Shown piece by piece: positions 1 to 64,000 of a DNA stretch of 64,000 nucleotides. The DNA is taken from contig CM022669.1 in assembly GCA_012295275.1 (NCBI GenBank), positions 1 to 64,000 of the forward strand, read 5' to 3'. Under the pieces are notes generated by a model. That model saw nothing but the letters and a program-made list of their open reading frames with translations, did not search any database and was not told the DNA's origin. This DNA is from Chrysomallon squamiferum (Eukaryota > Animalia > Mollusca). The position numbers and the translations under genes are program-made. Position 1 is the first letter of the stretch, and each line of letters begins with the position of its first letter.

Positions 1-1570
1 TGGTACTTCGTTCAGTTACGTATTGCTAGTAGTTTTCTTGTCAAACTACTTGTATTTCGATATTTAGCTTGTGTTTCTTCACAGAGCCACATCATTGTTC
101 CTTTGATTTTGAACAGGGCTTTAATCGAGTCATCATTTTGTAATTCTGAAAGTTCTCCTTGATACTCCATGGTTACATCTGACAGATCCACTAGCAATGG
201 CTGAGTCATCCAAGATGGATAATTAATTTCTTTCAAATCAGAAAATCTGAAGTTGAAATCGCTTACCATTGTTTTTAAGTGCTCCACAATAACAAGACAA
301 GTAGCATCTGTTACCTCACATTTATTCAGCCAATAAAATTGTTCAAATTTTTTGACAGAAATATTTTCTTGGGATAATTCCAGAAATGATATAAAGCCAA
401 ATATCTTGGCCTTTGAATTAACAAGAGTCATATTTGTTCCTTGGAGCTCCTTATTTAAGACATTGAGTTTTTCAAATATATCTGCTAAATGAATGACAAG
501 TGCTTTACCATCAACTGTCAGTAACAGAGTCATATAAGGTTTGTCATCCAAGAACTCACTAAGAATATCAAATAATTCCATGAATCTTTTCAGGCAATTC
601 CCCTTTGATAACCACCTTACATCAGTCTGAAGTAATACTCTTACATAGTCTGCATTTTGATCCTTGCAAAATTGTTTGAAAAGACGCTCACATTTGGCAT
701 CAATGTTGATGCATTTTATAACTGCATTCACTGTCTCGTTTAGAACAGGGGAAACTGTTTTGTAAACTAAATTCTGTCTATAAATAACACAATGCACTAA
801 CAACATTTGGGGATTGCTGTCTTTCAATAAGTTTAAAATTTTATTTTTCTTGTCCATCATCACTGGAGCACAGTCTGCAGCACAAGATATAATGTTCTCC
901 ATTGGTATCTGCTTATCATCTAAATATGTTTTAAATTTCTTATATTATATCAACTGCAATAGTGGTGGTTTCTAATGCTTCGCAAAATAGCATACCCTCA
1001 ATAAATTCTCCATTATCAACATATCTTACATAGGCCAATAACAGAGCTTCACTATCTCTTACAGTTGATTCGTCCAACTGTATTGAAAAATTTGTATATT
1101 TTAATTTTTCAACAAGTTGTGCTTCTACATCACAACTCATTTCATCAATCCTGCCACTAACAGTATTATTACTGAGCGACATGCTTTTGAGATCTTGGTC
1201 ATCTTTTTCAAGAACTACTCTCAGAAAAGACGATATTTGCGGGATTAATTAAATTCTCCTCTATTGTATGATTTTTTTTCCACATTTTGCTATGAGAAGA
1301 GAAATTTCATAAACTAAAACTCACCTTCTTAAACAAGTCGGAAGCCACGCATATAGCTGGTGCCAGATGCACGATGACATTAGTGGGTGAACATTTGACT
1401 AGACTGCACAAGCTGTTGCGCTCGGCTAGGTTGTAATTTTACCCTATACATTTATAATTTTTATAAAATAAAATAAAAATGTTGATATTACTATATTTTT
1501 TCATATTGCCTCCCCTATTATTATTGAATTGCCCCCCAGTGGGGCGTAGGCCCCACGTTGGGAATCACTG
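1..1570 (-). mobile_element. Defective hAT DNA transposon (Buster/Charlie, SCAND3/ZBED-like), partial; runs off window start
   Basis: Minus-strand ORFs 940-1182 (FSIQLDEST, first catalytic D) and 12-902 (HCVIYRQNL, VRWLSKG) are hAT transposase motifs in different frames. The terminal repeat GTTGGGAATCACTG at 1557-1570 is the reverse complement of CAGTG(G/A)TTCCCAAC seen at 35945. Confidence 0.92.
12..1182 (-). pseudogene. Frameshifted hAT transposase fragment
   Basis: Split into ORFs 940-1182 and 12-902. The DGA motif is mutated to DCA. The C-terminus goes out of frame (KLLAIRN versus KLLLPFPSSYLVE in copy 2). Confidence 0.85.
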
Positions 1571-2603
1571 CTCTAGGGGTGTCCGATATGGGGTCTGTGT
1601 ATGCATAGACAGAAATACCGTAGCACATTTTCGTACACTAGAACACAACAAACACAAGACACTTTTAAAACCTGTATTCGCGCCAGCTAGGAACAGTCAG
1701 TTCAGTGGTATAGAATAATACAGATGGATAGAAATATTGTAATATTGTAACAACAGTTACATCAGGGTTAATACAATCAGAAGAGCAAATATTTATATGT
1801 GTAACAAGTTACCCAGTGCGTCAAGTGACCGTTATTTCCACAGTTTTGAATTTTTATGAATTTTTATTAATTAATTAATTGCACTAATTAGCTCAAATGT
1901 ACCTTAAGCCTTAATTAAGTAATTCTCAAAAAAAAAGATTAATGAATTGCACAAGCCTTTATATTTTTCAAGCATTTTGCTAACATTCACTTTTTAATTA
2001 TTTGTATATTATTTTTGTATCATTTACCATTAATTTGCTTTACGAGTTCATTATAGTATATAGATGAAATAAATTCACAAAAAAATCTAACTTGCTAAGA
2101 ATTGTCTGCATAATCAACATCTTTATCAGAAAGAAAATATTACCTAAAACAGAAATATTATGCCACATAATTACTAAATCAAACAACACAGACGAAAAAT
2201 CTAACTTTTCAGACACCGACAGCGACAACAACGACAACAGTCGCGTCATTGGCTGAGAACAGCACACATTTTGGTATTCAAAATTAAGAACCTGCTACCC
2301 TAAAGATTTGTATGAAATTTAACAGACCATCAGAGAAAGATATAATTTGTAACTTGTATATAATTTAACGCTCCGAGTAAGCTTATGGACGATCATTTGT
2401 CTGTAGAATATCTGTTGTTTATCAAAGATTACATTACAGATTACAAAACAAAGATGAAACTGAATATATAAAAGTAATGACGAAGCAAAAACGTGACACA
2501 AAAGTCGTGCGAGCTTCCGCTTCCCCTCAGTGAGGGCTTTGTGACTTCGGTTAACAACGAGAGGTGAAGGTTTCGATCAAAGAGTGCGATTTGTTAGTAA
2601 CAC

Positions 2604-2829
2604 GGCCAATGCGGAGTATAAAATTTCCAGATATTTCTGTAAATCGAAAGATGATAGCCATCAACTAACAACGATTATTTATCCAAATGTCCGACTGAGC
2701 TGTTCTCCACTAGAGCTCGGCCTAGGACGTTAGTTTCGCTGAATCTCCTCAGTTGAGAGCAGACATTACTTTGACCTACATAGAGATCATCGATTATTTC
2801 CAATACGACGCAGTATAACACAGGTAACG
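2604..2829 (+). promoter_or_regulatory. Candidate cGLR promoter and non-coding first exon
   Basis: CCAAT at 2606-2610 and TATAAAA at 2617-2623, then a CpG-richer stretch ending in a good donor CAG|GTAACG at 2823/2824. Repeated at ~15541-15766 and ~51332-51557. No transcript evidence. Confidence 0.3.
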
Positions 2830-61210: not shown

Positions 61211-61410
61211 NNNNNNNNNNNNNNNNNNNNNNNNNNNNNNNNNNNNNNNNNNNNNNNNNNNNNNNNNNNNNNNNNNNNNNNNNNNNNNNNNNNNNNNNNN
61301 NNNNNNNNNNNNNNNNNNNNNNNNNNNNNNNNNNNNNNNNNNNNNNNNNNNNNNNNNNNNNNNNNNNNNNNNNNNNNNNNNNNNNNNNNNNNNNNNNNNN
61401 NNNNNNNNNN
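61211..61410. other. Assembly gap (200 N)
   Basis: Run of Ns. Confidence 1.
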
Positions 61411-64000
61411 TTATTATTTATTTGTTATTTATTTATTTTTGATGTCAAGATTATGAATACATAATCTATAACTGCTGTTATTTAATCAACTATTAACATT
61501 TGATACAATTATTTAGATAGTAAATAAAATTACTTTTCAGTGGGCTGAAACATATATGGATTATAAATAGACAGAAATGTATGAACATCCTCAGTGTTAC
61601 CTAGTTTCTGTTTCCTTCTACCTTATTTTTACCTCACTCACTAAAAATGTGACAGCCTACGTACCTCGAACAAGTGATAAGTTCTTAGTGTTTGACTAAA
61701 TGGCGGTTTACTCTGCAAGTTCACAATGTTTCTTTTTGAAACTTAAGAGTTACAGGTTTTTTTTTCTAACGTTGTGATAATGCTTTATGTAAAAATGTTG
61801 AAACACATGCACAATCCCCCCAACAAGAAAACAACGAAACGGTAAACTGTTTATTATTTTAAAATAGTTATATTTTACTTGTATTTTTTTCATTCTTTCT
61901 TTCTTTAACTCTTTCATTCTTTCTTTCTTCTGCTCTTTTTATTTGATATATTTTTAAATCAGTCCCATTTGGCTATTTCCCACTCCAGCCCGTGCTCCAT
62001 GAAGTGATAAACAAAGACTGGTTTGTGTTTTCCTGAAACTTCACGTAAAACCTGCCTTCATTTTATCAAAAGCCTCGCACAAGTCGTCAGCGAGTTTGAT
62101 CTGTCTTTACTACAGAATGTATCACCCATATAACATTTAAAATATTTTATGTTCTCCGTTAAAGAAAACATTTCTTCTGTCTATCCTAGTCAGTACAGAA
62201 CAACTGGATTATCGAAGACAATATTTTCCTGTGTGTGGGTAGGTGCAGATATGAAACAACTTCCTACTACTTCATAGCGGTAGAGTACAGCAGTGATTGT
62301 CTGTTTCATATAATGGTAATACAAAAGCATTATATGTAATCATGTTAATATTAAAATCTATTCTCAGTCATTAAATACTAATTATTAAGACATATCTTAT
62401 TACAGAAATGTAAATCTAGGTTTTGGACGCAAAGACTACAAAATCTTTGAATAATTACAACTTTCAAGATCATCTTTTGGCAGTTTTATATTACTAGAGT
62501 TAAGTGTTTCCCATATCCAAATATTTCAACATTTGTTTGCTTGAATTATGGACTATACTCGAGAAGAAAGGAAAAATATAGGAAATATTCATTAATTATT
62601 ATATAAACATTTCTTTTAAAAAATCATTGAAGATAAAACTAGTGTATTATTATAGAGCAACAGCTTAATAATAATAAACAACAATATCAAGTTCATATCA
62701 TACAAGGTCTGTGTTATGTGAAATATTTCAGAAAATCAGTTCATTCACTTTTTTTTTAATTTTATTTTAGAAGAATTAAAACGAATGCAATTTTTATTCT
62801 GGTCCGCGTGCTGGGCTAAATTCACTTGTTTAGATACGAGTCGTTGTTATCAAATGTTTTCTTATGTGCTTGTTTTTCTATGAGGTGAAACATTATTTTT
62901 TCTTGCTGGTATTCTGTAAAATGAGCCTATTGTCAAAAGACACGCATGAATGATTTTTAATGATCCTCAGTACAATAATATCAGGTCATGTTAACCATTT
63001 ATACACTTACTTTAAAGGCAACACGTATCGTAGTACAAATCTTTTATCTGTCTTACTTGATGTTTTTCTCTCGGCTTCTCTCTCCAGCTTTTTAAACCAA
63101 AAATATTCAACAAAAATTATTTTATTTATTTATTTATTTATTTATTTATTTATTTATTTATTTATTTATTTATTTATTTATTTATTTATTTATTTATTTA
63201 TTTATTTATTTATTTATTTATTTATTTATTTATTATTTATTTATTTATTTATTTATTTATTTATTATTTATTTATTTATTTATTTATTTATTTATTTATT
63301 TATTTATTTATTTATTTATTTATGTTTTATTTATTACTTGTCTGAAGACAAATTACTGCTATCAACGACTTAATTTGGAAGAAGAAATTCGGCTAAAGTG
63401 GATTTTATCTGTTAACCATTAGAAGATCATGTTTAATACGTAATAAATGCTAGGTAGTTTTTTCACATGATTGATTTTGTTGTTATTTTCTACTCAAATC
63501 TCTTTTTCTTTTTTTTCTTCTTTTTTTTTATATTTGAAGTTACTTTTTATAATAATAATATTAATAATAATTTCTATAAATAAGGAGGTTTTGAAACTTG
63601 TCCAGGTTATAATAATGAAAAAAAAAAAAAAAAAAAAAAAAAAAAAAAGAAGAAAAGATGTATAATGTAAACAAACTTTTTCAGATTTAGTTTCTTTTTT
63701 CTTTTGTATCGAAAATAATTGTTTTTAGAATGTTGATGGTTTTCCTAGCCCGCCACGATATATACGATATATTAACGCTTTGTTAAAAATTAACGCTTAT
63801 TTTAAATATTATCCTAACGCTCATACAAATGTTCACTATTTATTTTTTTCAAATAAAGGTTATTTTACATTTTATGTGAACACTGACTGCTCATTTTTGG
63901 GAATCAAAGTATTTTTAATTTTATCCTTAGACTCAATGTTAAGTTTCTTAAGTAGAAGCTAGTTATTTTTATCCTAACAATCACCATTAACTTTCCCAAG
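61411..64000 (+). repeat. Upstream region of a further (fourth) cGLR duplication unit
   Basis: Near-identical to 3061-5482. The coding exons would lie beyond the window end. Confidence 0.88.

Follow-up and report, generated by a model that had tools for sequence, protein, structure and literature searches.

The window analyzed here, a stretch of 64,000 nucleotides, contains three Mab-21/cGAS-like genes (cGLR1 to cGLR3), an older cGLR fragment, two TNF-ligand genes and three broken hAT copies. Gene order is cGLR1, cGLR2, TNF1, relic, TNF2, cGLR3, gap. Features are given below by coordinates, strand and description.

1-1570, -, hAT transposon relic A, 94-96% identical to copies B and C; the window begins inside it
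1574-8537, +, upstream block U1 of cGLR1, ~7 kb, with older internal repeats
8538-12337, +, cGLR1, exons 8538-9498, 9938-10166, 10912-11112, 11508-12337
12338-14496, +, cGLR1 3' flank, homologous to the cGLR2-TNF1 spacer, 95.5% identical to 25206-27646
14497-14514, no strand, deletion junction with TNF and hAT missing, 13 nt templated plus 5 nt
14515-21630, +, upstream block U2, 97% identical to U3
21631-25462, +, cGLR2, exons 21631-22467, 22907-23135, 23968-24165, 24795-25462, open, 643 aa
22312-22431, +, hypervariable exon-1 stretch of cGLR2, 120 nt, aligning with the cGAS spine helix
25463-28101, +, cGLR2-TNF1 spacer, strict kB-type sites at 26916 and 27852
28102-35041, +, TNF1, exons 28102-28251, 29384-29452, 32582-32603, 32949-33014, 34608-35041, open, 246 aa
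35945-38051, -, hAT relic B, 2.1 kb, 14-bp inverted ends
39300-39816, +, cGLR relic, part of exon 1 with a frameshift, from a more divergent paralog and joined to 3'-flank sequence
41870-47297, +, TNF2, exons 41870-42019, 42377-42445, 45112-45133, 45405-45470, 46867-47297, open, 245 aa
48196-50284, -, hAT relic C, a copy of A/B
50288-57490, +, upstream block U3, matching the other upstream blocks
57491-61210, +, cGLR3, exons 57491-58450, 58890-59118, 59951-60148, 60784 to the gap
61211-61410, no strand, assembly gap, 200 N
61411-64000, +, part of a fourth upstream block, non-coding, 98.5-99.1% identical to U1-U3

All cGLR and TNF genes lie on the + strand, as an earlier sequence-only reading had stated. 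The junction of TNF end, hAT and cGLR upstream sequence, reported there as occurring twice, was recovered at 34147-38300 and 46481-50533 (94% identity), and the window does open with the same hAT-cGLR junction, starting inside a third hAT that has the same right flank as the other copies. The repeat unit is likely upstream-cGLR-TNF-hAT, at ~23.5 kb. Joint duplication is supported by the shared junctions and by a cGLR1 flank that matches sequence upstream of TNF1; the neighbouring cGLR and TNF genes were likely duplicated jointly and later partly lost singly. The alternation of cGLR and TNF genes that had been described does not hold, as the cGLR2 upstream region directly follows cGLR1 without TNF or hAT, and TNF2 follows the relic. 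For the proposed fourth unit, the upstream sequence is present, but 61411-64000 is non-coding after the gap and may be redundant with U3 or U2. The proposed cGLR relic is likewise present (~39300-39816), but amounts to a frameshifted exon-1 fragment without the enzyme domain.

Both partners are kept in one of the three units visible end to end; one unit is without TNF and hAT, and another without the cGLR enzyme domain. In the first, homology between the cGLR1 flank and the cGLR2-TNF1 spacer extends as far as 27646, ~450 bp before the TNF1 start codon, and the flank then jumps to 3 bp past the hAT end; the right break of the deletion falls 3 bp inside the hAT target site. The junction carries an 18-nt insert, 13 nt of which are copied from ~310 bp upstream. 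In the second, the relic matched the exon-1 repeats at 76% in DNA (E 4e-25; profile score E 0.27), and homologs searched by tblastn had no significant match in this region. Because TNF2 thus also follows a cGLR remnant, and one of much greater divergence, the cGLR-TNF adjacency may predate the recent duplications.

The Pfam profile check proposed with the sequence-only reading (Mab-21, PF03281/PF20266; TNF, PF00229) returned matches for all domains and bore out its count of three cGLR-type genes and two TNF ligands. PF03281 was matched in exon 3 of all three cGLRs (E 3e-4 to 5e-6), two of the three above the curated cut-off and cGLR1 just below it (21.1 vs. 24.1 bits, in an exon-wise scan where the score is that of a single exon), and PF20266 in exon 4 of the two complete genes (cGLR1, cGLR2; E 6e-8, 2e-6). 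At curated cut-offs, cGLR2 passes both domains, cGLR1 passes PF20266 and cGLR3 passes PF03281, the C-terminus of cGLR3 falling in the 200-N gap. The two domains occur in the order that marks Mab-21/cGAS-like membership. One reading frame is open in the assembly (cGLR2) and two carry a one-base frameshift that the sequence-only reading had missed: in cGLR1 one extra base in an A run (8571-8574, codon 13), absent from a run X3 contig, and in cGLR3 one base missing in a T run at ~61180, ~30 nt before the gap. Five 41-residue repeats lie at the N-terminus of cGLR1, and its exons 3-4 are of a divergent type relative to cGLR2 and cGLR3. An exon 1-2 splice of a cGLR family member was seen in run X10 contigs.

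A GS loop and the acidic triad E285/D287/D380 were identified in cGLR2, together with a Thr/Ser-rich insert in the C-terminal lobe; across the window cGLRs, these three acids fall at the triad positions of abalone relatives, and the GS loop is present. The literal motif of active cGLRs, h[QT]GS X8-20 [DE]h[DE]h X50-90 h[DE]h (Li et al., 2023), was not found in cGLR1 or cGLR2, which read N-D-G-S, 11 residues, E-S-D-C, then 90 (cGLR2) or 92 (cGLR1) residues, departing from it by having Asp where Q or T is required and Ser separating the two acids. The genes are therefore filed as cGAS-like with an intact triad and not as proven active cGLRs. Calculated core pI was 9.2 for cGLR1 and 8.1 for cGLR2; a core pI >8.5 is associated with nucleic-acid sensing (Li et al., 2023; PMC9980059). 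Structural homology was assessed by proxy, the model of a relative, P0004 (pLDDT 75.7), matching 8GJW and cGAS.

Both TNF genes have open five-exon GT-AG models and matched PF00229 at 64.5 and 65 bits against a cut-off of 23 (E ~1e-17). The C-terminal TNF homology domain (Atlas score 0.95) matched TRAIL most closely in the PDB (E 3e-8), and also lymphotoxin, FasL and TNF; TRAIL as the closest structure does not imply orthology. A putative type II transmembrane segment, hydrophobic in character, was found at residues 9-27 (19-residue hydropathy 2.6 and 2.75, a simple window score and not a topology prediction). TNF2 has a truncated extra exon-1 copy at 41271-41552. Folded from a single sequence, the TNF domain gave a poor model (pLDDT 52.8). 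Word-based protein searches with this domain gave no match at E 0.001 (64 and 4 candidates), so no gastropod TNF accession can be placed beside the cGLR accessions given below; a metagenome scan gave one weak locus among 107 (L001, 36% over 62 residues, E 3e-5).

The three hAT relics have a common right flank, which means that they spread by copying of the unit and not by separate insertions. In copy B the transposase is split into frames of 102 and 363 aa and the inverted ends match at 13 of 14 bases. Transposase features (Atlas 0.96 to hAT/FAM200 clusters) were found along with inverted ends, and a Pfam profile scan returned no hAT match for the relics. Copy B lacks an identical 8-bp target site duplication, its left 8-mer agreeing with its own right flank at 4 of 8 bases and with the right flank of A and C at 5 of 8, and may be a hybrid or decayed element judging by these ends. 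The target-site mismatch is read from this one copy, whose left end is intact, and may simply reflect decay.

Non-coding divergence between copies is 0-5%, and several blocks are 98.5-100% identical, which is also within the range that alleles could show. These blocks would fit an array that is one cGLR and one TNF repeated from uncollapsed haplotypes. Such a reading is very improbable, given two deeply different exon 3-4 types, unique junctions, the relic unit, three hAT copies differing pairwise by 3-4%, and three distinct exon 1 versions, more than two haplotypes provide. A more limited artefact would lie around the gap, with cGLR3 and the fourth upstream block being either an overlap or the second haplotype, and fewer copies at the true locus. 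It would account for cGLR3 stopping at the gap with an error-like frameshift, for its near identity to cGLR2 (0 differences over 832 sites of intron 2, 2 over 629 sites of intron 3, and no change across the 127 codons compared in exon 4), for the 99.1% identity of the block after the gap to U3, and for the cGLR2/3 type being the minor type in run X3. We consider this unlikely as well: positions 1-61210 are gap-free, cGLR3 differs from cGLR2 at 14 of 233 nt in exon 1 and is preceded by other sequence, 36% of exon 3 bases are unlike between cGLR1 and cGLR2, and the relic-TNF2 unit has its own unique sequence (38400-39300).

Run contigs were compared for 4 of 10 runs, over 7741 of the 64,000 bases. 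Run X3, which comes from a different study than the top two runs, holds both cGLR types at contig depths of 27-28 and ~7, and one heterozygous locus would not give this ~4:1 ratio, provided that X3 represents one animal. No cGLR2-TNF1 bridge was found among the 32 contig pieces listed of 1253, which is not evidence against the junction. In run X7, cGLR2 exon 4 was uncovered and TNF exon 1 deeply covered. Both the cGLR and TNF families were spliced in run X10, where contigs show no level or timing.

The cGLR copies are mosaic, and their divergence is concentrated. The spine stretch has 20 variable sites in 120 nt among the three copies, at least 19 of them amino-acid changing, and 17 of its 40 codons vary; in intron 1, 0 of the 439 sites are variable, and in the proximal upstream block 32 of 3629 are. 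The contrast between the stretch and these two regions gave a Fisher p of 1e-17, for a stretch picked after differences were seen and a comparison of three sequences. All 20 sites are non-synonymous in the majority context (binomial p 0.013), the excess falling to p ~0.08 once one ambiguous site counts as synonymous. Elsewhere, exon 3 of cGLR1 and cGLR2 is 44% identical in protein and 64% in DNA, and cGLR2 exon 2 holds a divergent patch of 10 differences in 22 nt. Patches of this kind, the spine stretch included, could also come from short conversion tracts out of unseen paralogs. In primate cGAS, positively selected sites lie on the spine, according to the available part of PMC4420275. Two of these, D177 and T181, map to variable codons (via alignments, assuming no gap), an overlap that is not significant, as 17 of 40 spine codons vary. 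The cGAS zinc-ribbon cysteines are absent from the aligned segment of the window copies. The substitution pattern suggests that the sensor copies are likely diversifying at the predicted nucleic-acid-binding helix.

The sequence-only reading had further proposed a sensor and an effector duplicated as one operon-like cassette. Its co-duplication half is supported by the shared junctions; its operon-like half is unsupported, with two of three units single-gene, so that partners are retained together in one of three copies, and strict kB sites upstream of TNF1 only. The operon-like claim is unproven rather than refuted. Strict kB-type sites occur in the 64-kb window at 13764, 26916 and 27852 only, three against 0.63 expected per 64 kb (60 Markov simulations). 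The site at 13764 sits in the cGLR1 3' flank, and that at 27852 is a palindrome 250 bp before the TNF1 start; those at 26916 and 27852, two independent sites, could, from their position, act on both cGLR2 and TNF1.

A functional cassette, in which cGLR and TNF are held together by common NF-kB-responsive control and duplication raises both doses, would be in line with cGLR2 and TNF1 lying on the same strand 2.6 kb apart with kB-type sites in the spacer, with both TNF genes being open, each after cGLR-derived sequence and one of these of older divergence, and with a TNF exon-1 contig depth of 22 in run X3, similar to that of shared cGLR parts (29-31). In published work, Nematostella responds to cGAMP with NF-kB activation (PMC8713801), and cGAMP induces a cGLR of the fly (PMC10917227). 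We regard the cassette as improbable nonetheless: one partner is lost in two of three visible units, no strict kB site was found ahead of TNF2 or within the 7-kb blocks that precede the cGLRs, and signalling by a diffusible nucleotide requires no linkage. The main texts of PMC9980059, PMC10917227 and PMC8713801 contain the term 'TNF' 0 times and therefore do not show TNF as an invertebrate cGLR output, and no described cGLR-TNF linkage was found in the literature searched, mostly outside subscription journals. Were the cassette real, TNF would be a candidate output of invertebrate cGLR-STING signalling and the locus a rare animal case of sensor-effector linkage. A broader proposal, equally doubtful, is an old gastropod cGLR-TNF pair under shared NF-kB control, amplified as a module, with hAT recombination changing copy number and selection rewriting the ligand-binding helix of the sensor copy by copy. 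Such a pair would parallel, in an animal, the way bacterial CBASS operons link sensor and effector.

The preferred reading, to which we assign a probability of about 0.65, is that cGLR and TNF lie side by side in several copies because one 23.5-kb tandem duplication carried both along as passengers rather than as a coupled pair, the sensor copies diversifying at the predicted nucleic-acid-binding helix. The first duplication would have arisen by unequal crossing-over between two hAT copies on either side of the cGLR-TNF pair, leaving behind a hybrid hAT whose two target sites do not match. Unit 1 would have lost TNF and hAT through a break at a hAT end that was mended with a short templated insert. 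Unequal exchange or gene conversion may keep upstream DNA and intron 1 near-identical, exons 3-4 persisting as two old types despite exchange, and selection would favour spine helix changes. Going by its family, the cGLR is predicted to produce a cyclic dinucleotide activating STING and NF-kB; TNF1, having kB sites of its own, would be among the targets of NF-kB, and a link from cGLR to TNF1 would work in trans, with physical linkage unneeded. If the passenger reading is correct, the locus is a compact natural experiment of near-identical cGLR copies, in which differences mainly in the spine helix and exons 3-4 could reveal how ligand or product shifts in an invertebrate sensor, and the spine-helix selection of primate cGAS would extend to a mollusc.

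The closest known proteins are a gastropod cGLR subfamily from Haliotis asinina (XP_067678631.1, XP_067678629.1), H. rubra (XP_046583526.1, listed in Table S1 of PMC9980059), H. rufescens (LOC124133238, LOC124133248), Nucella lapillus (KAL8595598.1, KAL8595600.1) and Littorina saxatilis (KAK7109014.1, KAK7109018.1). The window copies share with these a long variable N-terminus, Mab-21 plus Mab-21_C, the aligned acidic triad and an extra C-terminal-lobe helix, but form their own long-branch clade, with a further Thr/Ser/Glu/Lys-rich C-terminal-lobe insert of ~40 to 95 residues and 41-residue N-terminal repeats. The curated H. rubra member is likewise off the literal motif, with Ser instead of Q or T, and P0004, an abalone protein 80% identical to it, has a 96-residue Asp-Asp spacing. 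Near-consecutive accession numbers of the subfamily in Nucella, Littorina and Haliotis asinina hint at local cGLR clusters. Oyster Cv-cGLR1 (PDB 8GJW) and mouse/human cGAS gave the best sequence match (E 4e-24) and best fold match (E 1e-22) of P0004, at ~20-24% identity; the spine helix aligns. A metagenome scan with the cGLR alignment gave 0 confirmed among 60 pattern matches.

The hAT relics resemble Buster-group elements (TcBuster; FAM200/GTF2IRD2/SCAND3-like) in their 14-bp inverted ends and nnnTAnnn-type flanks, nnnTAnnn being the target consensus of that group in the part of PMC3499496 available, and differ from them in being internally deleted and frameshifted, with non-identical flanking 8-mers. 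In molluscs, the cGLR and TNF families each form tandem arrays independently; bivalve TNF arrays include 76 TNF genes in Mercenaria, mostly tandem, according to the accessible portion of PMC8905726, in whose main text 'cGAS' and 'Mab-21' have 0 occurrences. Molluscan TNF arrays hold type II membrane TNF ligands in tandem, as here, but unlike in arrays of the Mercenaria type, the duplicated unit here also includes a cGLR.

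We read this locus, with a probability of roughly 0.65, as a tandem array under birth-and-death evolution, its two neighbouring immune genes having been copied together while the sensor diversifies. Its principal features are:

1-1570: hAT copy A, transposon relic
8538-12337, plus strand: cGLR1, Mab-21/cGAS-like gene; five copies of an in-frame 123-bp (41-residue) exon-1 tandem repeat at 8572-9229
21631-25462, plus strand: cGLR2, Mab-21/cGAS-like gene; four copies of the repeat at 21648-22198
28102-35041, plus strand: TNF1, TNF-ligand gene (246 aa)
35945-38051: hAT copy B
about 39300-39816: cGLR relic
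41870-47297, plus strand: TNF2, TNF-ligand gene (245 aa)
48196-50284: hAT copy C
57491-61210, plus strand: cGLR3, Mab-21/cGAS-like gene; five copies of the repeat at 57508-58181
61211-61410: the one gap in the window (200 N)

The window holds AT-rich animal DNA (GC content 20-37% per kb). Mab-21, Mab-21_C and TNF domains were all found in exon-wise Pfam scans, which bear out the gene identities proposed from the sequence alone. With a canonical GT-AG model cGLR2 is an open frame of 643 aa, and both TNF genes are open five-exon models with a hydrophobic segment at the N-terminus. An A run at codon 13 of cGLR1 holds one surplus base, and a T run about 30 nt ahead of the gap in cGLR3 is one base short; either frameshift may stem from an assembly slip or be a private allele. 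In sequencing run X3, a 1015-nt contig across the cGLR1 site has no surplus base and carries a cGLR1/3-type letter at 21097, and the contig across the cGLR3 site is a gapless match to cGLR2. The splice sites between exons 1 and 2 are supported in both gene families, because in contigs of run X10 (filed under another organism code) exon 1 of cGLR runs straight into exon 2, and exon 1 of TNF into exon-2-like sequence. RNA run X8 yielded one unspliced contig, identical to the cGLR2-specific exon 1 end, which could be DNA. TNF intron 2 contains a minisatellite of 38-39 bp units (30798-31750 in TNF1, 43611-44500 in TNF2); a candidate 22-nt TNF1 exon with canonical splice sites is mimicked by the first of these units and was rejected.

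For the cGLR C-terminal exon, ten of 15 matches were looked up and five were named, and these nearest named proteins were from gastropods (Haliotis and Nucella); a second protein search added Littorina relatives. On this evidence the DNA is likely molluscan. By alignment, the GS loop and acidic triad correspond to those of abalone relatives, one of which (XP_046583526.1) is a row in a curated cGLR table (PMC9980059). The triad is intact but the literal active-cGLR motif, as worded in PMC9980059, is missed (Asp at the Q/T position, Ser between the first two acids); the genes are therefore classed as cGAS-like, and we infer a putative enzyme activity. The predicted model of a relative resembles oyster cGLR1 and cGAS in its fold. 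In a tree of 17 rows, built on the last 430 residues of homologs, the copies from the window fall together in a single clade on a long branch. Their C-terminal lobe carries a low-complexity, Thr/Ser/Glu/Lys-rich insert (about 95 residues in cGLR1, 11670-11990; about 40 in cGLR2 and cGLR3, 24920-25085), which is built from short internal repeats and is not present in six aligned gastropod-type relatives.

The order of elements is hAT-U1-cGLR1-flank / U2-cGLR2-flank-TNF1-hAT / short U-relic-TNF2-hAT / U3-cGLR3-gap / part of U4, where U1-U4 are the upstream blocks of cGLR units, and the complete unit spans 14515-38051 (23.5 kb). All three hAT copies share one right flank and thus descend from one junction. 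Behind cGLR1, the 3' flank tracks the cGLR2-TNF1 spacer up to the equivalent of 27646; an 18-nt insert follows (13 nt of it a copy of sequence 310 bp upstream), and beyond it the sequence resumes 3 bp past the hAT end. On the simplest reading, a break at the transposon end would have cost this unit about 10.4 kb, with its TNF and hAT. Small insertions and deletions are described for hAT excision, the deletions there reaching only 50 bp (PMC3499496). The relic preserves a piece of exon 1, with a frameshift, from a more divergent cGLR paralog; it is joined to flank sequence and lacks the enzyme domain. The 8-mers flanking hAT copy B share a central TA and differ at 3-4 positions. Copy B may be a hybrid of two insertions, from which an origin of the array by unequal crossing-over between hAT copies would follow; alternatively, the unlike 8-mers reflect decay.

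Older internal repeats (75-83%) occur in the upstream block (2200-6850, with counterparts in U2 and U3), and its piece at 4331-4528 resembles the cGLR 3' flank at 13068-13279 (77%), pointing to earlier duplication rounds. An 82-bp upstream-block piece is found again at 38318-38399, preceded by an acceptor-like site; it is a possible 5' untranslated exon. Just upstream of TNF2 (41271-41552) lies a truncated additional copy of the TNF promoter and exon 1 start. Within the cGLR2-TNF1 spacer, 26600-27850 has many-contig, high-depth stretches in X3 and in run X7, indicating dispersed repeats.

Positions 1-61210 are gap-free, cGLR1 and cGLR2 share 44% of residues in exon 3, and exon 1 exists in three distinct versions. 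In X3, the listed sites carry cGLR1-type letters throughout (6/6 in exon 4, 3/3 in intron 2) at a contig depth of 27-28, with depth about 7 on cGLR2/3-type exons and 29-31 on common parts, contig depth not being equivalent to copy number. If X3 is a single animal, this 4:1 ratio is not what one heterozygous locus would give; it also departs from the window's own cGLR composition, a sign of variation in copy number or alleles. The least secure copies are cGLR3 and U4, either side of the gap. In X7, summed contig depth was several hundred to >1000 on TNF exon 1 (28111-28340) vs. 0-50 on cGLR exons, with cGLR2 exon 4 uncovered; there may be many more TNF copies, a different population or a filter hole.

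Intron 1 shows no substitutions between copies (0/439 sites). Substitution divergence amounts to 0.4-0.7% for the proximal upstream block and 1.2-1.5% for the distal one; it is 3-4% among the hAT copies and 4-5% for those TNF intron parts that were compared. The closing stretch of exon 1, a region picked after inspection and compared in three sequences, varies at 20/120 sites and in 17/40 codons (Fisher P = 1e-17 against the proximal upstream block, subject to that choice of region). Judged in majority context, all 20 variable sites score as altering the amino acid (P = 0.013, 19.5% synonymous sites; P about 0.08 should a single ambiguous site count as synonymous). The TNF domain shows the opposite behaviour (3 synonymous and 3 non-synonymous changes in 142 codons). 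As an alternative to diversification of the sensor, the variable exon-1 patches could come from conversion tracts. The variable stretch (22312-22431 in cGLR2) lines up with the spine, the long N-terminal cGAS helix, although the direct match is weak (E = 0.12). In cGAS structures the spine touches nucleic acid. Positively selected sites are borne by the primate cGAS spine (PMC4420275). At the cGLR2 exon 2 end (23102-23123), 10 differences in 22 nt, not in cGLR1 or cGLR3, have the look of a short tract converted by a paralog that is itself unseen.

Strict kB-type sites lie at 13764, 26916 and 27852, that is, two independent sites, one duplicated (0.63 per 64 kb expected by chance, 60 simulations). 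Two of them precede TNF1, at distances of 1.2 kb and 250 bp, and the duplicate is stranded behind cGLR1; none was found before TNF2 or in the cGLR upstream blocks. Because of these upstream sites, TNF1 is a likely NF-kB target. The sequence-only reading had described sensor and cytokine as linked and duplicated in one operon-like cassette; the observation largely stood, and the interpretation was overstated. An older link is favoured by TNF2, which too sits behind cGLR-derived sequence, of greater divergence. Only one of the three units visible end to end retains both genes (one has only cGLR, one only TNF), and the placement of strict kB sites in the window offers no indication that a promoter is shared. 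A functional cassette is improbable.

The literature searched, with subscription journals mostly outside its coverage, yielded no description of cGLR-TNF linkage, and TNF is absent from the main texts of PMC8713801, PMC9980059 and PMC10917227. In Nematostella, NF-kB is activated by cGAMP (PMC8713801). An abalone relative has Cys-rich repeats at the same N-terminal position as the 41-residue repeats here, although the two are unrelated. Near-consecutive accession numbers are a hint that other gastropods, too, have this cGLR subfamily in clusters. Bivalves commonly carry TNF genes in tandem arrays (PMC8905726), and up to 27 TNF paralogs are reported from one mollusc (bioRxiv preprint 10.1101/2024.07.27.603686).
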